64,000 bases of DNA from the NCBI GenBank assembly GCA_963977015.1, contig CAXBMO010000003.1, forward strand, positions 352,001-416,000, in the 5' to 3' direction. Position 1 is the first letter of the stretch. Each line of letters starts with the position of its first letter. This stretch comes from an uncultured bacterium (lineage in GTDB: Bacteria; Verrucomicrobiota; Verrucomicrobiia; Verrucomicrobiales; DEV007). Shown here piece by piece: positions 2,323 to 52,142 of this stretch. The notes beneath the pieces were generated by a model, which was not told the origin of the DNA, did no database searches, and was given only the letters and a program-made list of their open reading frames with translations. Both the position numbers and the translations under genes were made by a program.

Positions 2323-3597
2323 ATGCCCAATTTCGAATACATCGCCCTCGACGCGAAAGGTCAGGAAACGACTGGCACCATTTCAGCGGCAAACGAGGCG
2401 GATGCCTATACCCAACTTCGCCGGAATGGATTGTATCCCACCAAAGTTGGTGAGCAGTCGAAAGGGGGTGTCGGTGGTCAGGCAAAACGGAAGGCAAAAT
2501 CAGCTCAGAAAAAGCGTGCCGCCGGTCGAAAAAAATCCAGTGGAAGCGTTACCCAAAAGACGCTGATGCTTTTTACCCGGCAACTTGCGACTCTGGTCGA
2601 TGCCGGCCTGCCCCTCCTCAAAGGATTGACGGTCCTCGGTGATCAGGAGAAAAACCCCAACATGCGAAGCGCCATCAACACCCTGGCGGACAGCGTCCAA
2701 ACGGGTTCGACGTTTTCGGAAAGTCTTGGGCAGCACCCAAAAATCTTCAACAAGCTCTACGTCAACATGGTGAAGGCTGGTGAGCTTGGTGGTGTCTTGG
2801 AAGTGGTCCTTAATCGACTCGCGGAATATCAGGAAAAGGCCCAAAAACTGAAGAACAAGATCGTCGCCGCGATGGTGTATCCGGTCATCGTGATGATTAT
2901 CGCGGTCGGTATCATTATTTTCCTGCTTACTTTCATCGTTCCCAAGTTTCAGAAGATTTTTGACGAAATGCTTGGCGGCAAAGCGCTTCCACCTGTGACG
3001 CAATTTGTCATCAACGCGTCCGATCTCGTACAGAACAATATCATTGTGCTGATTGGGGGTGTTCTCGTCCTTTTTGCCCTCTGGAAATTGGTGCAGGCGA
3101 CCAAAGGCGGTCGGCGCGTGATTGATCAGCTCAAACTCAAGATTCCCGTATTTGGGCCGGTTCAACAGAAAACGGCCATTGCGCGGTTTTCGCGCACGCT
3201 CGGAACCCTCGTCAGCAGTGGTGTGCCCATTCTTCAGGCCTTGAACATTACTCGCGACACGGCCGGAAACGTGGTGGTGTCCAACGCGATTGACAAGGTT
3301 CACGAAGCAGTTCGCGAGGGTGAGTCGATCGTTCATCCACTGGAGGCAAGCCGAGTTTTCCCTCCGATGGTGATCAGTATGGTTCAGGTGGGTGAAGAAA
3401 CCGGACAGTTGCCGGATATGTTGATGAAAATTGCCGATGTCTATGACGACGAAGTTGATACGGCGGTAGCCGGCCTTACCTCGATGTTGGAGCCAATCAT
3501 GATCGTTATTCTTGCACTGGTAGTTGGAACGGTTGTGATGGCATTGTTTCTTCCACTGGTCAGCATTATCACCAACCTGCAAAACCAGGCGGGATAA
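2323..3597 (+). CDS. pilC: Type II secretion F / PilC inner-membrane platform protein
   Basis: FTRQLATLVDAGLPL, NMVKAGELGG, GEETGQL motifs; follows the PilB/GspE genes. Confidence 0.93.
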   Translation: MPNFEYIALDAKGQETTGTISAANEADAYTQLRRNGLYPTKVGEQSKGGVGGQAKRKAKSAQKKRAAGRKKSSGSVTQKTLMLFTRQLATLVDAGLPLLKGLTVLGDQEKNPNMRSAINTLADSVQTGSTFSESLGQHPKIFNKLYVNMVKAGELGGVLEVVLNRLAEYQEKAQKLKNKIVAAMVYPVIVMIIAVGIIIFLLTFIVPKFQKIFDEMLGGKALPPVTQFVINASDLVQNNIIVLIGGVLVLFALWKLVQATKGGRRVIDQLKLKIPVFGPVQQKTAIARFSRTLGTLVSSGVPILQALNITRDTAGNVVVSNAIDKVHEAVREGESIVHPLEASRVFPPMVISMVQVGEETGQLPDMLMKIADVYDDEVDTAVAGLTSMLEPIMIVILALVVGTVVMALFLPLVSIITNLQNQAG

Positions 3598-3624: not shown

Positions 3625-4224
3625 ATGAAAATCGTAAGCAATAGCCAACAATGCCACCGAGGATGGACGCTCACGGAACTTCTCTTCGTGATGCTCATCA
3701 TGATCGGACTGGCAGGATTGGTCGCCGGTTCGATTGGCCCCGTAAAAAACAGGGTGACCCGCTATCAAGCAAGTGCCCAACTCGGGATGTTGGCGACTGG
3801 ATTGGCGGACTATAACTCCGAATATGGCGGTTTTCCGATCTGCGAAGACTTGGCGGATAGTGGAAACATCCTTTACAAAACCTTGTTTGGTGATTTTGAC
3901 GAGTCGGGCAAACCGGACTGGCTGGCGACCGACAAAAACGATGGTGCCGTCAAAACGTTTGTCACCAAACTCCAGCCCCACCCCAATGTTCTAGACTCAG
4001 ATCCCGAGACGCTCCCTCAAGGAACGACCTATGTTCTGGATTTGGATAATGGGCTTACGGTCGTGGATCCGTGGAATATGCCTCTGGGCTACATCAACTT
4101 CCGGAAAGGCCAGAATTCGCAGGTTCCGAACGGTGGGGGTGCCAAGAATCCCACCTACGACCTCTGGAGTTTCGGCAACGACCAGTCTTTCAAGAACGAG
4201 GCGACGTGGATCACCAATTGGTAA
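3625..4224 (+). CDS. Prepilin / GspG-like pseudopilin
   Basis: Prepilin cleavage/N-methylation motif G|WTLTELL plus hydrophobic helix; DPW and YDLWSFG C-terminal GspG-like motifs. Confidence 0.85.
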   Translation: MKIVSNSQQCHRGWTLTELLFVMLIMIGLAGLVAGSIGPVKNRVTRYQASAQLGMLATGLADYNSEYGGFPICEDLADSGNILYKTLFGDFDESGKPDWLATDKNDGAVKTFVTKLQPHPNVLDSDPETLPQGTTYVLDLDNGLTVVDPWNMPLGYINFRKGQNSQVPNGGGAKNPTYDLWSFGNDQSFKNEATWITNW

Positions 4225-4291
4225 CGCGCAGATCGGGTAAGGCGTAACGAATTTCGAGCTTTTCGAATGTCGGCCAAGCGGTTTCCGCTCC

Positions 4292-5710
4292 CTACGAATA
4301 GCTTTTTCGCATGTGGCTGGGAAGAATGTCCAATTCTTCCCGGTATTTGGCGACGGTTCTGCGGGCAATCTTGATTCCCTTTTCCTCGAGCGCCTTTACG
4401 ATCGCCTGATCGCTGAGAGGTTTGTGAGGATCTTCTTCCGCTACAATTTCCGCGATCGTATCTTTCACGCTCGTGTTCGCGACACTCTCGCCACTGTCGG
4501 TCTGGTAACCAGTGGTAAAGAAGAACTTCATATCGAGAACACCCTGAGGGGTCGAAATAAACTTCCCGGCAATGGCACGACTGACCGTCGTCTCGTGAAC
4601 GCCAACGGCTTCCGCCACTTGCGCCATGTTCATGGGATGAAGATGCGCACGACCTTTGTCAAAGAAATCGACTTGTCGAATGACAATTTCTCCGGCGATC
4701 CGGCGGATGGTGTCCTGCCGTTGCTGGATGCTTTGAATTAAACTGCGACCGCTCCGAATCTTATCCTTGATGTAGCTTCGAACCTCCCGTTGGTCCCCTT
4801 TTTCCGCCATCATGTCCTTATAGGTGTTGCTGATTCGCAACCTGGGAACCTGTTCGTTGTTCAACCGGATCTGATAGTTCCCGTCCTCATCGACTTCGAC
4901 GAAAACATCCGGAGTGATAAAGCGATTATCTCCACTCTCGAAGAGTCGCCCCGGCTTGGGATCCAGCCGGCCGATGGTTTCCGCCGCCTGACTCACCTGC
5001 TCAGCAGTTACGCCCAGTTTTTTGGCAATCTGCGGGAAACGGCGCTTCGCAAGATCTGGGAGATGATCGTTGATAATTCGGTATTCGAGCCCAAACGGCT
5101 TTCCGCTGCGTTCAAGCTGGGCAATCAGGCATTCCCCCAGAGATTCCGCCCCTACCCCGGCAGGCTCAAAGGACTGGATAATGCTCTTGGCATTTACCAG
5201 GTCTTCCAGCGGGATTCCATTGCTTAAACTTAGTTCCTCAACCCCAATTTGGAGAAAACCGTTCTCGTCAAGATTGCCGATCAACATCTCCGCCATGCTT
5301 CTTGCCGGCTCCTCAATCCCCTCGGTGCTCAATTGCTCCAGCAAGCTCTCCTGAAGGGTTACCGGTCGGACCAGCGAGTCGAACATAAATTGGCGTTTTT
5401 CCTCATCGGCGGCGCTGCGTTGACTGACCTTGCGCGATTGGGCCATGTACTCCCGCCACTCATCGTCCATTTGCGAAAGCTTGGAAAACTCCTCCTCAAA
5501 CCCCTCATCGTCTTCGTTGAGATTCTGATCCTCAATCGAAATATCGGAAGTTTCATCCTCCAGGACCGGATTCGCGTTCAACTCCTGTTGGACCAAAGTA
5601 CGCAGCTCCAAAGTGGCAGCCTGCAAGATCTGCAGACTCTGCTGCATTTGCGGGGCGAGCTTCTGGGATTGTTTGAGCTCAGGCCGTTGAGAGAAGCCGG
5701 TTGATGACAT
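4292..5710 (-). CDS. rpoN: RNA polymerase sigma-54 factor
   Basis: N-terminal Q-rich region (QMQQSLQILQ), VHETTVSRA HTH, RpoN box ARRTVAKYRE; ATG at 5710 preferred to the ORF-track start at 5746. Confidence 0.96.
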   Translation of the reverse strand: MSSTGFSQRPELKQSQKLAPQMQQSLQILQAATLELRTLVQQELNANPVLEDETSDISIEDQNLNEDDEGFEEEFSKLSQMDDEWREYMAQSRKVSQRSAADEEKRQFMFDSLVRPVTLQESLLEQLSTEGIEEPARSMAEMLIGNLDENGFLQIGVEELSLSNGIPLEDLVNAKSIIQSFEPAGVGAESLGECLIAQLERSGKPFGLEYRIINDHLPDLAKRRFPQIAKKLGVTAEQVSQAAETIGRLDPKPGRLFESGDNRFITPDVFVEVDEDGNYQIRLNNEQVPRLRISNTYKDMMAEKGDQREVRSYIKDKIRSGRSLIQSIQQRQDTIRRIAGEIVIRQVDFFDKGRAHLHPMNMAQVAEAVGVHETTVSRAIAGKFISTPQGVLDMKFFFTTGYQTDSGESVANTSVKDTIAEIVAEEDPHKPLSDQAIVKALEEKGIKIARRTVAKYREELDILPSHMRKSYS

Positions 5711-43528: not shown

Positions 43529-46500
43529 ATGAACCCCTTCGTTTCCTGCGTCCTGTTTGTCCACGCGGTCAGCGCCGCAGAAATCCCTCAGCAAACGATC
43601 AACTTCATGGAGGAGGCGATGCTCTCCGAGATGGAGTGCCGACTTGATCCCAAGCGTTCCCAAAGCACGAATCGGGAGGAGGTATTTCAACTGCTTTCCC
43701 CCAATTTGCTCCGCGTATCCGGGAAAGGCTGGGGATATCTCCAAACGGCCAAGACCTATCAGAACTATCATCTCGTTCTCGAGTTCAAATGGGGCGAGCA
43801 CACCTGGGGACGCAGAGCCGACAAAGCTCGGGACGCTGGCGTCTTCCTGCACTGCCACGATCGCTTTGGGACCTGGCCGAAGGGTGTCGAAGCTCAGTTG
43901 ATTGAGGGAGGTTCGGGCAATCTCAACATCCTGGAGGACGGTGTGACCAAGCGCTATTGCAAGTATCGTTCCCCGCGGTGGACGGATGTGAGGGGCTTTC
44001 GTGGCGACTGGGATCTGGAGGAACTCTTTGGCCAATGGAATCGCATCGAAGTGATTTGTGACGGCAACGAACTAACGGTTCTCCTGAATGGAACGCGCGT
44101 GAACCACTTCGAAGAGCTTCCCGTCTCAGAAGGAGGAATCGCGATTCAATCGGAGGAAGCGGAATGGTTCATTCGGCGATGGGAGGTCTGGCCACTGGGA
44201 GAATTCGGGGAACCCTGGAAGCCCGCAACCCTCTCAACAAACACCGGAAGCGGCGCCGATCTCGTTGCCCGTCCGAACGCACTCTCCCCAGACGAATCCT
44301 TCGCCGCACTGGAAGTCGACGGTCCGTTTCAGATTCAGCTCGTTGCGTCCGAACCGTTGGTTTGCGATCCCGTGGACGTGGTTTGGGACGAAGCCGACCG
44401 GATGTATGTGGCAGAAATGCGCGATTATCCGCTTCCGCCAACGAACGGCCCCCTCCTTTCCCGCATCAAAATCCTCATCGACACCAATGGCGATGGCATT
44501 CCCGACGAGAGCAAGGTCTGGGCCGATCAAATGGACCACGTTCAGGGGCTCCTCCCCATCAACGGTGGGATCCTGGCAACGACCCGCCGCCAAATTCTGT
44601 TTTTTCAGGATACCGATGACGACCAGGTGGCCGACAAGCGTGAGATCTGGTTCGAAAGCAACGATCCACGCCACAATCAGCTTCAAATCTCAAGCCCTCG
44701 CCTTGGGCCCGATGGATGGATCTATCTCAACAACGGGCTGGACGGAAAACAGATCTATCCCAGCGATTCCGAGGAACCAGAGCTCAATATCGCGCGACGG
44801 AATATCCGGATTCACCCTGAGACCCGGGAAATCGAACCCGTCAGCGGCTACGGCCAATTTGGAGCGACGATCGATCCGTGGGGACGTCGTTTCGCGAGCA
44901 GCAATCGCAGTCCGGTCATGTTTGCAGCAATGCCTCTTTATGCGGTGGAGCGCAATCCGTATGCAGGTCTGTCCACGGGTCATATCGATATCGCTCCCAG
45001 TGGCGGAGATTCCCTCGTTTACCCGCTCAACATGAGCCACACCACGGCGGCAGCTCATCTTGGAACTCACACCGCGGCTTGCGGGCTTTGTTGGTATCGC
45101 GGGGACATCTTTGTCTGCGAACCCACCGGTCAACTCATCACCCGGAATCGAATCGAGCCCGAGGGCGCCATCTTGAAGGCGAGCCAGGTCCGCACCAAGC
45201 CCCAAACCGAGTTTTTGCGGAGTCACGACGAATGGTTTCGCCCAGTGAACCTCCGCAGAGGGCCGGACGGCGCACTCTACGTTTGTGACATGTATCGACG
45301 CTTCATTGATCACGCGCGATTCTTTCCCGAAGAGTTTTCCCAGGCCCATTACATGCGGGCGGGATTTGATCAGGGAAGGATCTGGCGAATCACACCGAAA
45401 CAAAAAGATAAGAATGCTGACTTCGGTCGAAGTGAGATTGCCGCAAAAGCAGTCTATGGGATGAGCCCGGCGGAACTGAGAAGACAGTTTCAAAGCGAGT
45501 CCCCTGAGGTCGTTGAGAACGCAGTCCAGGCGGCTGAAATCCATCTCGCAGACTCCCCTGAACTGCTGCCGGAGTTCATCAACCTGACTCAGCATGAGAA
45601 TGCGCGAGTCCGCTTTCTGGCCCTCGTTGCCATCGGCGGATCGACGAGCCCGGAAGTTACGCAGGCCCTCAAAACTGCGGCCCAGAGAGATTACTTCGAA
45701 CCCTGGATCCGCAAGGCCATCCTTTCCGGCGCCGAGAATCGAGCCGGAGAAATTTTCCAAGCCGTGATTGAGGCGCCAGGCTTCGCCGACTTCGCCTCGG
45801 ATCAGAAATTGGCATTTGTCCGCGAATTTTCTTCCGCGATTGGAAGACGATCCGACTCTCACGAAACCCAAATGGCGGCAGCCTCAGTTCGCAAGGTCAG
45901 CGACGACGCACTTTGGCTGCGGCTCTCTGCCTACGAAGGGCTTGGCAGAGCCGCAAAACTGAGCGCCGATGAGTTATTCGCCAGCGCTCGCATCGCGCTC
46001 GATTCTGACACCCAAATGACCGACCGGCTTGCGGCCATTCCCCTGCTGCGCCTTCTCCCGATTGACCGCAGCATCGAAATCTGGTCCGCGCTTTTGGATG
46101 TTTCCCAACCCACCGAAATCCGCCGAGCCGCGTTCTCGGTCGCGAAGTCACTCAACCGGACCAAAATCTCGGCAACGCTCTTCACGATGTGGCCGGATCT
46201 CGACACCGAGTCAAAAGCCGAGGCCATGGCGATTCTCTCCAAATCCCCCCTCCCCCTCCTTCAAAAGATGAAAGCAGGCGACATCAATCCCGCCTTGCTC
46301 GACCCGATGAGCCGTTGGGTTTACCTGCGATCGTCGAATGCCGAAATCAAAGAACTGGCTGAGGAACTTTTTGCTCGCCCCAGCGAGGATCGGGCCGCGA
46401 TTTTGACGAGCTATCTCCGTGCGGAAACGTTGAAAGGCGACGCATCCCGAGGTCACGCCCTTTTCACGACGAATTGCGCGGTGTGCCATCAGTTTCGCGG

Positions 46501-48232
46501 TGAAGGTGGCCAGATCGGTCCAGACATCACCGATGTTCGCAACAAGCCCTGGCAAGCGTTGCTTTCCGACATTCTCGATCCCAACCGCATGGTGGAGGCG
46601 CGCTGGACCGCCCATTCCCTAACCAGGAAAACGGGCCCCGCTTTGCTCGGCGTGATTGAAGCCGAAACCGCAGATTCGATCACGATCAAGGGTCTTGGAG
46701 TCCACGAAACCGTTTCACGCAGCGAGGTTGCCTCCATCAAGGATTTGGGGCAATCCCTGATGCCAGTCGGATTTGAGGGCTCGCTCGACCATCAAGCGAT
46801 GGCCGATCTGCTCGCGTTCTTGCAGGGAAAAGGTGAAACCGGCCCCAAAGAAACGGAGAAACCGAAACGCGCCGCCGCAGACAAACCCAACATCGTCCTG
46901 ATCCTCTGTGACAATCTCGGCTACGGCGACATCGAGCCTTTTTGGCCGGAAACACCGCACCGCACCCCCAATCTCAATCAGATGGCGGCGGAGGGAATGA
47001 AGCTTTCCCACTTCTATGTCTCGGCAGGCGTATGCACGCCTTCACGCGCCAGCATCATGACCGGTTGCTATGCGCAACGCGTCGGTTTGCACAAGATGGA
47101 GGTCGATCATCATGTGCTTCGTCCGGCCTCGCCGCTGGGATTGAATCCGGAGGAAGTGACCGTCGCGGAAGTCTTGAAGAGCGCCGGCTACGCGACCACC
47201 ATCATCGGAAAGTGGCATTTGGGAGACCAACCCGCCTTTTTACCGACGCAGCAGGGGTTCGATTCCTTCTTCGGAATTCCCTACAGCGACGACATGACGG
47301 CACGAGAATGGAACTCCCGCGTTTGGCCGCCTCTCCCTCTGGTTGAGGATGAAACCGTGGTTGAGGCTCCGGTCGATCGGAGCACGTTGACCAAACGTTA
47401 CACCGAACGCGCCCTCCAATTCATTCGAGCACAGAAAGAAAGCCCCTTTTTCCTGTTCCTGAGTCACGCGATGCCGGGAAGCACGAAGACTCCCTATTCG
47501 AGTGAACGGTTTCAGGGAAAAAGCCAAAACGGGGCCTGGGGTGACTCCGTTGAAGAAATTGATTGGTCGACCGGCGAGATCCTGGACGAACTCAACAAGC
47601 TCGGCATTGCCGAAAACACCCTGGTGATCTGGACCTCGGACAACGGCGCGCCCCACAATCCCGGAGACATCAAACGGGGAACCAACCAGCCGCTGTCCGG
47701 ACGGGGATACACGACCAGCGAGGGTGGAATGCGCGTTCCGACGATCGCTTGGTGGCCCGGAAGGATTCCGCCAAACACGGAATCCACCGATTTGGCAACG
47801 ACGATGGATCTCCTGCCCACCTTCGCCCGCCTCGCACACCAGTCTTTGGATGTGGAGAAAACCATCGATGGGAAAGACATCAGCCCGATTTTATTGGGCA
47901 CACCCAACGCCGAGTCACCGCATGAAGCGTTTTTCTATTACCAGCTGGATCAGCTCCAAGCCGTGCGAAGTGGACCATGGAAGTTGGTCCTCCAGTTGGA
48001 GAATCCCATCCGCCACGGACGCTTTCGGCAGGGACCAACCGACGAACTCTTGTTCAACCTGGTCACCGATATCGCCTGCGAATCGAATGTCGCAGCTTCT
48101 CACCCGGATATCGTGGCCAGACTCCGAGAACTCGCAAATCAGGCCCGTAAGGAACTTGGTGACACGAATCAGCCGGGAGAAGGGCAACGGGCAGCCGGCA
48201 GAGTTCCAAATCCTGTTGCTTTGGTGAAGTGA
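43529..48232 (+). CDS. Multidomain protein: DUF1080 + PVC-type heme-binding membrane-bound dehydrogenase (propeller, HEAT, cytochrome c) + sulfatase
   Basis: Signal peptide; DUF1080 motifs (GYLQT.K.Y.NY.L.LEFKWG, RDAG, E.QLIEG..G, GQWN, I.IQSE); LVASEP..DP, WFRPV...GPDGALY..DMYR; CAVCH heme site, GPDIT; sulfatase CTPSR, GKWHLG, SDNG. Confidence 0.9.
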   Translation: MNPFVSCVLFVHAVSAAEIPQQTINFMEEAMLSEMECRLDPKRSQSTNREEVFQLLSPNLLRVSGKGWGYLQTAKTYQNYHLVLEFKWGEHTWGRRADKARDAGVFLHCHDRFGTWPKGVEAQLIEGGSGNLNILEDGVTKRYCKYRSPRWTDVRGFRGDWDLEELFGQWNRIEVICDGNELTVLLNGTRVNHFEELPVSEGGIAIQSEEAEWFIRRWEVWPLGEFGEPWKPATLSTNTGSGADLVARPNALSPDESFAALEVDGPFQIQLVASEPLVCDPVDVVWDEADRMYVAEMRDYPLPPTNGPLLSRIKILIDTNGDGIPDESKVWADQMDHVQGLLPINGGILATTRRQILFFQDTDDDQVADKREIWFESNDPRHNQLQISSPRLGPDGWIYLNNGLDGKQIYPSDSEEPELNIARRNIRIHPETREIEPVSGYGQFGATIDPWGRRFASSNRSPVMFAAMPLYAVERNPYAGLSTGHIDIAPSGGDSLVYPLNMSHTTAAAHLGTHTAACGLCWYRGDIFVCEPTGQLITRNRIEPEGAILKASQVRTKPQTEFLRSHDEWFRPVNLRRGPDGALYVCDMYRRFIDHARFFPEEFSQAHYMRAGFDQGRIWRITPKQKDKNADFGRSEIAAKAVYGMSPAELRRQFQSESPEVVENAVQAAEIHLADSPELLPEFINLTQHENARVRFLALVAIGGSTSPEVTQALKTAAQRDYFEPWIRKAILSGAENRAGEIFQAVIEAPGFADFASDQKLAFVREFSSAIGRRSDSHETQMAAASVRKVSDDALWLRLSAYEGLGRAAKLSADELFASARIALDSDTQMTDRLAAIPLLRLLPIDRSIEIWSALLDVSQPTEIRRAAFSVAKSLNRTKISATLFTMWPDLDTESKAEAMAILSKSPLPLLQKMKAGDINPALLDPMSRWVYLRSSNAEIKELAEELFARPSEDRAAILTSYLRAETLKGDASRGHALFTTNCAVCHQFRGEGGQIGPDITDVRNKPWQALLSDILDPNRMVEARWTAHSLTRKTGPALLGVIEAETADSITIKGLGVHETVSRSEVASIKDLGQSLMPVGFEGSLDHQAMADLLAFLQGKGETGPKETEKPKRAAADKPNIVLILCDNLGYGDIEPFWPETPHRTPNLNQMAAEGMKLSHFYVSAGVCTPSRASIMTGCYAQRVGLHKMEVDHHVLRPASPLGLNPEEVTVAEVLKSAGYATTIIGKWHLGDQPAFLPTQQGFDSFFGIPYSDDMTAREWNSRVWPPLPLVEDETVVEAPVDRSTLTKRYTERALQFIRAQKESPFFLFLSHAMPGSTKTPYSSERFQGKSQNGAWGDSVEEIDWSTGEILDELNKLGIAENTLVIWTSDNGAPHNPGDIKRGTNQPLSGRGYTTSEGGMRVPTIAWWPGRIPPNTESTDLATTMDLLPTFARLAHQSLDVEKTIDGKDISPILLGTPNAESPHEAFFYYQLDQLQAVRSGPWKLVLQLENPIRHGRFRQGPTDELLFNLVTDIACESNVAASHPDIVARLRELANQARKELGDTNQPGEGQRAAGRVPNPVALVK

Positions 48233-49648: not shown

Positions 49649-50851
49649 TTACCGCATCGCCCAATCCAACTCAGATGCCTCGATGGGAGCGGGTTCCGGG
49701 TATTCGAAGGTCTTGCCCTCGAAATTGCGGATGATCACACGCTCTTCGTTGCGCTGAATCACGGTTTCCGGGTTCATCGGCACTTTTCCACCGCCGCCAG
49801 GCGCATCGATTACGTATTGCGGAACGGCATAACCCGTGGTGTGCCCACGAAGTCCGCTGATGATCTCAAGTCCCTTGGAAACGGGCACGCTGAGGTGCGA
49901 AGAGCCTTTAATCAGGTCCAATTGGTAGAGATAATAAGGCCGGACCCGGCAGCGAAGCAGCTTGTGAACCAACGTCTTCATGACCTCCAACCGATCGTTC
50001 ACCCCGCGCAAGAGGACACTTTGATTTCCAAGAGGAATTCCGCTGTTGGCAAGCCGCTCCAACGCCTCCTTCACTTCCAACGTCAACTCCCGGGGATGAT
50101 TGACGTGAACGCTGATGAACAATGGGTGATGCTGCTTCAGCATCTCGCACAATTCGGGCGTGATCCGTTGAGGAAGAAAAACCGGAACGCGCGAGCCGAT
50201 GCGGACAAATTCGATGTGCTCAATGCTTCTGAGCCGCCGGAGAATTTTCTCCAATTTCGAGTCACTCAGCAAAAGTGGATCGCCCCCTGAAAGTAGAACG
50301 TCGCGAACTTCAGTGTGTTCTTCGAGGTAACGGAAAGCCGCTTCAAATTGGGTGTCGAGATGCTGTTCCCCGGCACCACTGACGACCCGGCTTCGGGTGC
50401 AATAGCGGCAGTAGCTGGCACAACGATCGGTCACCAGAAAATTGACACGATCCGGATAGCGATGCACCAACCCCGCAACCGGCATGTCTCCATCCTCGCC
50501 ACAGGGATCCTCCATTTCATAGTCGGCTTCCCAGGTTTCTTCGATTCGGGGAATGACTTGGCGGCGAATCGGACAATTGGGATTGTCCTTATCGATCAAA
50601 TTCATGAAGTGGGGCGTAATGGCCATCGCCAGCTTGTTCCCACTCAGGATCACCCCGCTCCGCTCTTCATCGGTGAGATTCAGATGTTCTTCGAGGGCGC
50701 CCAGCGATGTAACACGGTTTTTTTGCTGCCAAATCCAGGAATTCCAATCTTCTTCGGCGACTTTCCGGTCAGCCCAATAGCCCGGAGCGTAAGATGTGAA
50801 GTCCCTTTCGGGAACCGTTGCGTCAAAGGTCATAGATGCGGTCAGATTCAA
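49649..50851 (-). CDS. KamA family radical SAM/PLP 2,3-aminomutase (lysine 2,3-aminomutase/EpmB-like)
   Basis: W.WQ.KN, DP.GE, LVHRYPDR, CASYCRYCTR, SGGDPL, NQSVLL.GVND, PYYL, PLP Lys in GGGGKVP. Confidence 0.93.
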   Translation of the reverse strand: MNLTASMTFDATVPERDFTSYAPGYWADRKVAEEDWNSWIWQQKNRVTSLGALEEHLNLTDEERSGVILSGNKLAMAITPHFMNLIDKDNPNCPIRRQVIPRIEETWEADYEMEDPCGEDGDMPVAGLVHRYPDRVNFLVTDRCASYCRYCTRSRVVSGAGEQHLDTQFEAAFRYLEEHTEVRDVLLSGGDPLLLSDSKLEKILRRLRSIEHIEFVRIGSRVPVFLPQRITPELCEMLKQHHPLFISVHVNHPRELTLEVKEALERLANSGIPLGNQSVLLRGVNDRLEVMKTLVHKLLRCRVRPYYLYQLDLIKGSSHLSVPVSKGLEIISGLRGHTTGYAVPQYVIDAPGGGGKVPMNPETVIQRNEERVIIRNFEGKTFEYPEPAPIEASELDWAMR

Positions 50852-50878
50852 TTCGGACTCTGAACAAGAAAAAAGCTT

Positions 50879-50906
50879 ACGGTAGGAGGTACCATTGGGG
50901 TGTCAA
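50879..50906 (-). promoter_or_regulatory. Putative sigma70 promoter for the kamA-family gene
   Basis: Minus strand TTGACA-N16-TACCGT, about 30 nt upstream of the ORF start. Confidence 0.45.
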
Positions 50907-50944
50907 CCATCACCTCAACACTTGCCGTATGACAAAAGTACCAG

Positions 50945-50972
50945 TTGCAGCCCGCCCGGTGATGCCTAAGAT
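50945..50972 (+). promoter_or_regulatory. Putative sigma70 promoter for the riboswitch leader
   Basis: TTGCAG-N16-TAAGAT; the predicted TSS (about 50979) coincides with the aptamer 5' end. Confidence 0.5.
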
Positions 50973-50978
50973 CCCTCC

Positions 50979-51142
50979 TAGCATCAGGAGTGGTGCTGCG
51001 GTGAGTGATAAGCAAACTGCGGCATCCGGCAACCTGGCATGGAGAAGCCAAGGTGCCTTGGAAGCTGAAGGGAACTTCAGTCTCCGATGTGCGGAACTGA
51101 TTTGCCGGATTTCGGCACGTCAGCCGAACAGCAATTCTCCGC
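50979..51142 (+). ncRNA. SAM riboswitch, SAM-I/IV variant
   Basis: Core GCAUCAGGAG...GGCAACC...GGUGCC...GAUG. P1 GCAUC/GAUGU; P2 GGUGCUGCGGU/ACUGCGGCAUC with no kink-turn; P3 GGC-A-ACC-UGGC/GCCA-A-GGUGCC; P4 CUGAAG-GGAA-CUUCAG; P5 CUGA..UGCCG/CGGCA..UCAG; L3 GGAGAA (51041-46) pairs with 3' UUCUCC (51135-40) as the PK-2 pseudoknot. Confidence 0.85.
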
Positions 51143-51213
51143 CGGAAGAATCTCCGGACATGTTCCTGATGCGGTGAACGAATGAAACTTCAACCGACAT
51201 CGCATCAACTATC

Positions 51214-51456
51214 ATGAATCAGACAGTCATTGAGTCCGATCAGGGAAGACCGGCTCTTCCAACACCCAAACTCAGCGTGAGGGTGAATTCCGAGAACGAG
51301 AATCACCACCTTTGGAACAACCGGGGAACCTGGTGGTGCCATTTCACCGTCCACAAAGCCGATTATACCACGGAACGCATTCGCTTGAGCCTCAAGACCC
51401 GCAGTTTGGAGGAAGCCCGGAACCGGCGGGATCGCGTTTTTGCCGGCTTGGGCTAG
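51214..51456 (+). CDS. Small basic protein downstream of the SAM riboswitch; resembles an integrase arm-type DNA-binding domain
   Basis: HHLWNNRGTWW.HFTVH...ERIRLSLKTRSLEEARNRRD, predicted three beta strands plus a helix; ATG about 70 nt after the aptamer. Confidence 0.75.
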   Translation: MNQTVIESDQGRPALPTPKLSVRVNSENENHHLWNNRGTWWCHFTVHKADYTTERIRLSLKTRSLEEARNRRDRVFAGLG

Positions 51457-51551
51457 CACCATTGCTGCCGGCGCGATCGCGTTTCCGCTTGAAATGTGAT
51501 CAATTCTGAGTTGGTAAGTCTGCCGCGGAAAGCACCCCGCGCAGAAATATC

Positions 51552-52142
51552 ATGGCTGAAGTGAATTCGACGTTTGAACTCAGGCGGGGCGCCATTGCGC
51601 CGGACTTCGAGCTTCCCGAAGGCGGAGCAAAGAAAAAGCATTCCCTTGAAGATCTTGCCGAGGGAAAATCGGCAATCGTCATTCTGTTTGCCTGCAACCA
51701 CTGTCCGTATGTGGTCCACCTGGCCGATTATGTGGGAGAGTTCGCCGATGAATACGCGAAGAAGGGTGTTCAGTTCGTCGCCATCAATTCCAACGATGCC
51801 AAAAAGTATCCGGATGATGCTCCCGAGAAGATGAAGGAGTTTTCCAAGGCGCACGACTGGAACTTCCCCTACCTATTCGATGAGGACCAGAATGTGGCCA
51901 AGTCCTACTCCGCAGCCTGCACGCCGGATTTCTATGTCTTCAACCAGAATCTGGAATTGACCTACACTGGACAGTTCGACAATTCGCGGCCCGGCAATTC
52001 AGCGCCCATCACTGGTGCCGATCTGAGAACGGCTCTTGAGTCCACCCTTCGAAACGGAAAAGCAGACTCCGTGCGCATGCGCCCAAGCAGCGGATGCAAC
52101 ATCAAATGGAAAAAGGGCAACGAACCCGCCTATTTCGGCTAA
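51552..52142 (+). CDS. Thioredoxin family (AhpC/TSA-like) protein
   Basis: APDF.LP, CNHCPYV, INSND..KYP.D, FPYL.DE.Q..A..Y.A.CTP, PS.GC.IKW. Confidence 0.9.
   Translation: MAEVNSTFELRRGAIAPDFELPEGGAKKKHSLEDLAEGKSAIVILFACNHCPYVVHLADYVGEFADEYAKKGVQFVAINSNDAKKYPDDAPEKMKEFSKAHDWNFPYLFDEDQNVAKSYSAACTPDFYVFNQNLELTYTGQFDNSRPGNSAPITGADLRTALESTLRNGKADSVRMRPSSGCNIKWKKGNEPAYFG

Follow-up and report, generated by a model that had tools for sequence, protein, structure and literature searches.

A SAM-I/IV-type aptamer with an additional hairpin upstream of a small conserved gene in Verrucomicrobiota

Textbooks present SAM riboswitches as regulators of genes for methionine and SAM. In an uncultured bacterium of the verrucomicrobial lineage DEV007 (assembly GCA_963977015.1, contig CAXBMO010000003.1), an RNA that resembles such a riboswitch is followed by a gene for a stand-alone protein of 80 residues, and the locus raises the question of what this RNA controls and what its target might do. 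The region lies at positions 50945-51456 (+) of the window, by which we mean the whole stretch of 64,000 nucleotides that was analysed, and it comprises, in order, a promoter-like element, a structured leader of approximately 235 nt and an open reading frame of 80 codons. An earlier note on this DNA had read it as a SAM-I-family riboswitch in front of a putative DNA-binding protein. The features of the locus and its neighbours are as follows.

49649-50851, minus strand: gene for a KamA-family radical-SAM aminomutase, the divergent upstream neighbour
50928-50937, plus strand: TATGACAAAA box, conserved, approximately 8 nt upstream of the -35 element
50945-50950 and 50967-50972, plus strand: promoter-like element, TTGCAG and TAAGAT with a 16-nt spacer, identified by its sequence layout, which recurs in relatives
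50981-51140, plus strand: SAM-I/IV-type aptamer, identified by the RF01725 match, covariation and the pseudoknot
50981-50985 with 51086-51090, plus strand: P1, aptamer helix
50992-51026, plus strand: P2, 11 continuous pairs (50992-51002 with 51016-51026) and no internal loop
51028-51057, plus strand: P3, with loop L3 at 51039-51046
51060-51085, plus strand: P4, a hairpin inserted between P3 and the 3′ strand of P1
51092-51125, plus strand: P5, a hairpin 3′ of P1
51041-51046 with 51135-51140, plus strand: pseudoknot of the P3 loop (GGAGAA) with the 3′ tail (UUCUCC)
51164-51175, plus strand: putative switching strand UCCUGAUGCGGU, a single copy in the window, with two possible partners
51193-51207, plus strand: ACCGACAUCGCAUCA, the 3′ strand of the predicted start-proximal (sequestering) hairpin, which ends 6 nt before the AUG
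51214-51456, plus strand: small gene of 80 codons, with a variable N-terminus followed by a conserved core of approximately 55 residues (three strands and a helix)
51552-52142, plus strand: redoxin gene, the downstream neighbour

An RNA of the SAM-I/IV class

A scan of the whole window at Rfam gathering thresholds returned no match. In a permissive Rfam scan of 50700-51600 (901 nt), RF01725 (SAM-I-IV) matched at 50976-51110 (+) with an alignment that spans the whole model (positions 1-99); this match, which bears on the covariance-model check suggested by the earlier note, has an E-value of 0.004, although its 32.3 bits lie below the gathering score of the model, 41.1 bits. The SAM-I model RF00162 reached 17.3 bits at the same site against a gathering score of 44.4 bits. 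We attribute the low RF01725 score to the length of P2 and to P4: at the site of this inserted hairpin, which separates P3 from the P1 3′ strand, the RF01725 consensus has a short joining strand. The aptamer is the sole SAM-clan match in the 6.9-Mb genome, and the leader folds with z = -4.25.

The architecture agrees with the class to which the match points. The SAM-I/IV class is marked by a pseudoknot that joins the P3 loop to the 3′ tail, and in the window such a pseudoknot occurs together with a hairpin 3′ of P1 and with the P1-P2-P3 core and its conserved junction nucleotides. The kink-turn by which P2 of SAM-I is recognised is absent, and P2 has no internal loop, a feature by which the original report (PMC2864571) sets SAM-I/IV apart from both SAM-I and SAM-IV.

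Among 61 related genomes searched, RF01725 gave 21 matches in 19 genomes. A match above the cut-off occurred in seven of the 61 genomes, and 14 of the 21 aptamers fell below it, so a whole branch of the class escapes the curated Rfam model. Across the aligned relatives, the blocks CAUCA.GAG, CGGCAACC, CAAGGUGC and GAUG are invariant or nearly so, and P2, P4 and P5 differ in both sequence and length. When the sequences were aligned with MAFFT, RNAalifold recovered P1-P5, with compensatory changes in 17 of the 34 pairs. A model built from the relatives' aptamers (R1) was also used to align 24 further matches. The covariation figures from this alignment lean toward the model because the alignment was fitted to it: 96.6% of cells were paired, P1 and P3 were paired completely (100%), and double changes were found in 15 of the 34 pairs, with four of the five P5 pairs showing them. 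None of 500 shuffles reached any of these measures, and sliding the partners lowered the paired fraction to 24-41%. The MAFFT/RNAalifold result, which is independent of the R1 fit, agrees with this covariation. Moreover, the pseudoknot between L3 and the 3′ tail is complementary in all 20 of 20 sequences and occurs in five sequence versions (GGAGAA/UUCUCC, GAGAC/GUCUC, GUGGAA/UUCCAC, UGGAGU/ACUCCA and CUGGAG/CUCCAG).

We consider it established that 50981-51140 is a SAM-I/IV-type aptamer, and the SAM-I-family core with P1-P5 and the pseudoknot that the earlier note had drawn is confirmed by helices that are present in the window and covary in relatives. This RNA adds a new structural variant to a known riboswitch class. 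From homology and the conserved core only, we infer that its ligand is SAM.

Promoter and expression platform

A promoter whose start site coincides with the head of the aptamer had also been proposed for the locus. One part of this proposal held: a CTTGC-N16-17-TAnnnT layout, situated 6-9 nt before P1, recurs at the loci of relatives. The consensus part did not, in that a promoter consensus scan of 50600-51700 found nothing and that TTGCAG and TAAGAT agree with the consensus at seven of 12 positions. Because the layout recurs at an equal distance from P1 in relatives, it is plausible that transcription starts near 50979, approximately 2 nt ahead of P1.

Upstream of this element lies the TATGACAAAA box. 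The heptamer TATGACA was present within 88 nt upstream of 36 of the 40 unique aptamers that precede the small gene (35 found by script, plus the locus L032), upstream of none of the four aptamers that precede other genes, and upstream of one of the 56 small genes that lack an aptamer, with a background of 0.005 per 88 nt. The box may be a factor-binding site or an UP-like element. We also considered TATGACA as the motif of a regulon and rejected it, as it shows no genome-wide enrichment: the 10-mer of the box has seven copies in the genome, compared with approximately 13 expected by our own estimate. A composite pattern of box plus promoter fits this locus only, genome-wide.

Every leader contains, 3′ of the pseudoknot, one or two copies of (U)CCUGAUG, which is the complement of the 5′ strand of P1 plus J1/2. 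In the window, UCCUGAUGCGGU is complementary to CAUCAGGA (50982-50989, the 5′ strand of P1 plus J1/2) and alternatively to ACCG...CGCAUCA (51193-51207), just 5′ of the start codon. The start-proximal hairpin forms in the minimum-free-energy folds of the window leader. When the two states were forced, P1 plus the start-proximal hairpin gave -97.0 kcal/mol and the alternative pairing gave -99.4 kcal/mol; with a difference of 2.4 kcal/mol, the two folds are nearly isoenergetic, as expected of a switch that is tipped by its ligand. The sequestered bases are not Shine-Dalgarno-like, a point against the proposed switch.

In relatives, the conserved UCCUGAUG lies within terminator hairpins that are followed by U runs. 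Most relatives place the first copy in a GC-rich hairpin with a U run, and the second copy forms the start-proximal hairpin. Of 19 leaders classed by eye, 13 carry both modules and six, the window's among them, carry the start-proximal module only; the terminator scan of 50600-51700 found none. In the 12 relatives' leaders analysed by script, terminators were flagged in seven (dG -18 to -25), and at least eight of the 15 nt before the AUG were paired in 11. These features suggest that the leader acts as an OFF switch in which UCCUGAUG would pair either with the 5′ strand of P1 or with the bases before the AUG.

The small gene, its protein and its partners

The 80-aa open reading frame at 51214-51456 (+) is a genuine protein-coding gene under protein-level purifying selection, as is evident from codon-position entropies of 0.59, 0.21 and 1.43 bits at positions 1, 2 and 3 (48 core codons, 90 sequences), and it follows the aptamer as described before. 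We found 202 homologues of near-equal length; at E<=0.001 the family numbers 972 cluster representatives, the best 150 of which are all 68-141 aa long. No fused or longer homologue was found at E<=0.01, which is weak evidence. Species-representative genomes contain 374 matching stretches, and the 80 that were fetched carry labels that include Verrucomicrobiales, Haloferula, Luteolibacter, Rubritalea and Akkermansia. Homologues differ in their N-terminal 25-30 residues. The core, N..HHLWNNRGTWWCHFT.H..DYT.ER.R.SL.T....AR..RD, is nearly invariant; 24 columns are invariant, and H31, H32, C42, H43 and H47 are the invariant His/Cys residues.

The pairing of RNA and gene is recurrent. In the 19 related genomes with an aptamer, the small gene lies on the same strand, approximately 100-300 nt downstream, at 19 of the 21 aptamers; at the two exceptions, the aptamer precedes a MoxR-like ATPase gene (L041) or a membrane-protein gene accompanied by a RadC-like one (L042). 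When 151 genomes sampled from the phylum were scanned with R1, matches were found in 10, and seven of the nine aptamers besides the window's own precede the small gene, with other families and classes included; this sample is biased toward gene-linked aptamers because R1 was trained on gene-linked examples. The riboswitch-small protein pairing is conserved across the phylum, and the reading of a SAM-I/IV-family riboswitch on a stand-alone small protein is upheld by the 19 of 21 aptamers and by the lengths of the best 150 representatives. The association of homologues with aptamers, which the earlier note had offered as a check, holds in one direction: starting from the protein, an aptamer was found at 24 of the 80 homologue loci but was absent at 56, so the protein is not tied to SAM-I/IV RNA everywhere. 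Among the 61 relatives, 18 have both parts, one has the aptamer only, seven have the protein only and 35 have neither. With so many relatives lacking both, the module is dispensable.

The immediate neighbours of the window's copy are the KamA-family aminomutase gene and the redoxin gene, and the observation that neither a met gene nor an integrase catalytic domain lies next to it is correct. Redoxin is retained as a neighbour in the closest relative. What flanks the pair varies from one genome to another, often with a convergent gene next downstream, which leaves the small gene as the sole constant target. At some homologue loci, tRNA genes occur shortly downstream of the small gene. In the literature searched, we found no description of the aptamer-small protein pairing; the riboswitch has an unusual and apparently undescribed target.

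An AlphaFold model of the protein (mean pLDDT 74.8, core 86-91) has strands at 33-36, 39-47 and 53-59 and a helix at 65-79, in which a three-stranded antiparallel sheet packs on the C-terminal helix. By the alternation of residues along the strands, H32, W34, N36, T39, W41, H43, T45, H47, R55 and R57 should lie on one exposed face of the sheet. An arm-type or AP2-like fold had been proposed; the order of three strands and a helix in the model agrees with it, but the corresponding structural matches (Z 4.0-4.5) are tied with unrelated folds, and the DUF6538 match is below its cut-off. In the structure comparison, the arm domain of lambda Int scored Z 4.5 (1z1b) and 4.0 (2wcc), AP2/ERF scored 4.0 (2gcc), and 6sy0 scored 3.9, all level with PH, DegV and other unrelated domains. 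Foldseek of the model against PDB and BFVD gave nothing at E<=0.001; the weak BFVD match at rank 8 is a phage integrase (48 columns, rmsd 1.6, E 0.15).

In sequence comparisons, the window protein matched DUF6538 (PF20172), a domain that we take to be located at the N-termini of integrases, with 16.9 bits and E 0.0049 against a gathering score of 27 bits. The same family was matched by 41 of 42 members at E<=0.1, all below the cut-off (best E 3.5e-5), and its cluster was the only named match in the ESM Atlas (0.89). These matches point to a distant relative of DUF6538, not a member. The open reading frame ends at 80 aa, and the C-terminal catalytic domain of tyrosine recombinases is absent from it. 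A DUF6538 search of the bacterium's own genome gave no integrase-type matches, a profile search of PDB sequences gave a chance trehalase match only (E 0.6), PADLOC and NCBIfam gave no match to the protein, PHROGs gave one at E 0.32 only, and tblastn against plasmids found none. Its resemblance to DUF6538 and to the arm and AP2 domains is thus weak. Together with the modelled fold, it makes DNA binding plausible, and we infer that the protein may bind nucleic acid.

A different line of evidence comes from loci that lack the aptamer. At 36 of these 56 loci, the small gene is directly downstream of, and on the same strand as, a gene for a 489-aa enzyme of the PF01053 (Cys/Met PLP) type; three representatives were run against Pfam, and all were PF01053. 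By NCBIfam the enzyme is BesB-like, far under the cut-off of that model. The arrangement occurs at none of the 24 loci with an aptamer, and in the window's genome the enzyme is encoded away from the small gene. This adjacency, read from gene order, points to sulfur amino-acid metabolism a second time and independently, but the synteny may have been inherited within one clade. Phyletic coupling of the small protein to the enzyme was considered and rejected: the enzyme is present in 54 of the 61 relatives with or without the small protein, and in family f2 it is present in none of the six genomes, all six of which have the small protein. A complex prediction for the own-genome PF01053 enzyme and residues 24-80 of the small protein scored 0.00 and was counted neither way.

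Methionine genes of the window's genome were also compared with Rfam; metK-ahcY, metH, four PF01053 genes and two metE-like genes had no match at E<=0.1. Divergently from metK-ahcY, the genome encodes a 309-aa protein with an ArsR-type HTH and a methyltransferase domain, the architecture of SahR. Palindromes that resemble ATATC-N10-GATAT, a motif form taken from PMC4239095, occur upstream of metH (two, overlapping) and metK (one); they are only suggestive because the genome holds 60 such sites at <=1 mismatch. The genome thus has a SahR-type regulator, for which the small protein is no substitute. The suggestion that the riboswitch and its protein substitute for MetJ/SahR-type regulators in this lineage is not supported, given this SahR-like gene beside metK-ahcY and the 35 of 61 relatives with neither part of the module.

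Proposed mechanism, rival readings and known systems

The reading that we favour, and regard as moderately probable, is that of a SAM-responsive OFF riboswitch whose protein is made at low SAM and binds nucleic acid. An aptamer with the extra P4 hairpin would be transcribed from its own conserved promoter and would govern a single small gene. When SAM is bound, P1 and the pseudoknot between L3 and the 3′ tail would close; with P1 closed, UCCUGAUGCGGU would be free to pair with the bases before the AUG, and the initiation region would be hidden. In most relatives, the first copy of the switching strand would also complete an intrinsic terminator when SAM is bound. When SAM is scarce, the switching strand would pair with CAUCAGGA of the 5′ side of P1, and the gene would be expressed. 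Invariant Trp, Arg, His, Asn and Thr residues would line the exposed face of the sheet, and the small protein would be the trans-acting output of a low-SAM signal. A more specific form, in which this riboswitch-gated, AP2/arm-like regulator might recognise the TATGACA box at its own promoter as well as a set of low-SAM response genes, we regard as distinctly unlikely. Within this form, since the module is an accessory one that changes genomic context and is multiplied in some genomes, it could equally serve as an alarm for a sudden loss of SAM, such as that caused by SAM-degrading enzymes of phages, rather than as a housekeeping methionine regulator.

The riboswitch may be as described and the protein something other than a nucleic-acid-binding regulator, which we judge to be unlikely on balance. 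The protein would then bind another protein or a small molecule, for example, to modulate a Cys/Met PLP enzyme, a methyltransferase or the ribosome at low SAM, and the invariant H31, H32, C42, H43 and H47 could bind a metal or a ligand. The adjacency to the PF01053 enzyme gene at 36 of the 56 aptamer-less loci and the five invariant His/Cys residues favour such a role, as does the outcome of the search for a target regulon, in which no DNA target motif was found in the genome, together with fold matches that do not discriminate. However, the enzyme is present in 54 of the 61 relatives and yet in none of the six f2 genomes, which without exception carry the small protein; the closest families that have a name are DNA-binding modules; and the invariant aromatic and basic residues that are predicted to share one face of the sheet recall those of AP2 and arm domains.

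Two further readings concern the ligand and the target. That the variant senses a SAM-related compound instead of SAM would agree with the extra P4, which marks it as a variant, with a target gene outside the SAM regulon, and with J1/2, which reads CAUCAGGAG (A-to-G) before the small gene and CAUCAAGAG in the two best-scoring relatives, which have other targets. We consider this very unlikely, as conservation extends over the remaining core, which aligns with RF01725 along its whole length, and the J1/2 position is in lower case (weakly conserved) in the Rfam consensus line; moreover, the J1/2 G pairs with a C of the switching strand UCCUGAUG, and its conservation is thus explained without a change of ligand. 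It is barely credible that the open reading frame has no cellular role, as a leftover of an integrase N-terminus that is decaying or selfish, and that the riboswitch controls a gene farther downstream (redoxin). Its DUF6538-like sequence, the tRNA genes near some homologue loci, the lack of a called terminator between the open reading frame and the redoxin gene, and the retention of redoxin in the closest relative would fit a remnant, but purifying selection is strong over 90 sequences, 24 columns are invariant, no relatives of integrase length were found, and what lies downstream changes from genome to genome and is often convergent. The tests that were run contradict a remnant, through both the codon-position bias and the absence of conserved downstream genes.

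The SAM-responsive OFF switch on a nucleic-acid-binding protein, which we favour, matters for several reasons. The SAM-I/IV-type aptamers found in the phylum sit almost only before one tiny conserved protein (19 of 21 and seven of nine). The RNA provides a ligand-defined handle on a protein family of 972 cluster representatives, and the locus may be a natural case in which a metabolite-sensing RNA feeds a protein regulator.

The SAM-I/IV riboswitch (RF01725, Rfam clan CL00012; Weinberg et al. 2010, PMC2864571) shares with the window's RNA the junction bases of the P1-P3 core, a loopless P2, the hairpin 3′ of P1 and the pseudoknot. The window aptamer differs from RF01725 in its score below the cut-off and in a SAM-I-like P4 hairpin that separates P3 from the P1 3′ strand and is absent from the Rfam consensus line, and it precedes a small non-metabolic gene. 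With SAM-I (S-box), it has in common a four-way junction of P1-P4 and a strand complementary to the 5′ side of P1 with a probable OFF logic; most relatives also share the intrinsic terminators of SAM-I, whereas the window's copy has the translational module only. SAM-I has a kink-turn in P2 and J3/4 as its pseudoknot partner. Unlike SAM-I, the window's RNA scores 17.3 bits with RF00162, lacks the kink-turn loop in P2 and uses the 3′ tail as the pseudoknot partner.

The predicted order of three antiparallel strands and a helix is like that of the lambda Int arm, AP2/ERF and DUF6538 domains. In contrast to lambda integrase, the small protein stands alone without a recombinase domain; it has its own invariant motif, HHLWNNRGTWWCHFT, and its matches to arm and AP2 domains are not above those to unrelated folds. 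The closest precedent for the module as a whole is the SAM-I RNA of Desulfovibrio vulgaris (bioRxiv 10.1101/803072), in which a SAM-I riboswitch/sRNA is reported to act in trans on the SahR mRNA. In both cases, a SAM-sensing RNA stands ahead of a regulatory protein in methionine control, a role that is putative for our protein. The window differs in that its aptamer lies in cis on an uncharacterised small protein and its SahR-like gene is separate.

Leader of the small gene at PF01053-linked loci

Where the small gene follows the gene for the PF01053 enzyme (a Cys/Met PLP enzyme), it has a conserved upstream block of its own, TTAGCAAAT..CTTGCC..GATAAACCGCT..AAT. Its leader at these loci is about 130 nt long and contains hairpins with stems of variable sequence. 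The comparison covered roughly 200 nt 5′ of the small gene, and the block and leader were observed at loci L048, L049, L054-L056, L064, L073, L076, L077, L079-L081, L084, L085, L087, L089, L090 and L101. An Rfam search of 20 loci, ten of them from this list, returned tRNAs only and no other family. We consider that this leader may be another regulatory RNA.

SAM-I/IV aptamers ahead of other genes

Among the relatives, the highest-scoring SAM-I/IV aptamer (51.6 bits) lies at locus L042 (G034:C152, oriented position 3001-3112), where it overlaps the 5′ end of an ORF for a membrane protein. The gene that follows this ORF contains an HNHPSG motif, which we take to be that of RadC/JAB proteins. Such a target is odd for a SAM riboswitch, and the locus may represent a mobile element. 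Two more aptamers that share the UCCUGAUG-type expression platform precede genes other than the small gene. At L041 (G042:C301), the downstream gene encodes a 536-aa protein that Pfam identifies as a MoxR-like AAA ATPase and whose N-terminus is rich in Pro. At L142 (G087:C13), the aptamer is followed by an ORF that is unrelated and some 145-160 aa long.

Other genes of the window and its genome

49649-50851, minus strand: KamA-family radical-SAM aminomutase (TIGR03820, 478.7 bits, below the cut-off of 525.4)
43529-48232, plus strand: 1567-aa ORF
G000 (the window's genome) C47, about 4100-5070 (locus L136, 240-1166), plus strand: SahR-like regulator, 309 aa, with an ArsR HTH and a SAM-methyltransferase-like domain
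G000 C47:1432-4130, minus strand: metK-ahcY pair, divergent from the SahR-like regulator gene

The aminomutase gene is divergent to the riboswitch promoter, and this neighbour is conserved in the closest relative only. The enzyme is a SAM user, yet its gene is on the opposite strand and outside the control of the aptamer. Judged by eye, the 1567-aa ORF presumably has a C-terminus resembling sulfatases, joined to a beta-propeller/HEAT-like region and a CxxCH haem motif. In G000, palindromes resembling ATATC-N10-GATAT occur upstream of metK (C47:4095) and metH (C1:184792 and 184800).

Copies of the small gene and adjoining tRNA genes

Some genomes carry more than one copy of the small gene, either in tandem (L063, L078, L088 and L104) or dispersed. 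Genomes G007, G037 and G051 have four, three and two copies, respectively, and each of the two in G051 has a separate aptamer. At L064, L077, L081 and L085, tRNA genes follow the small gene at a distance of 150-520 nt, and at L052 and L071 they lie upstream of it; these tRNA-adjoining loci are labelled Haloferula or Rubritalea. This proximity is reminiscent of integrase-tRNA neighbourhoods, although here the recombinase is absent.
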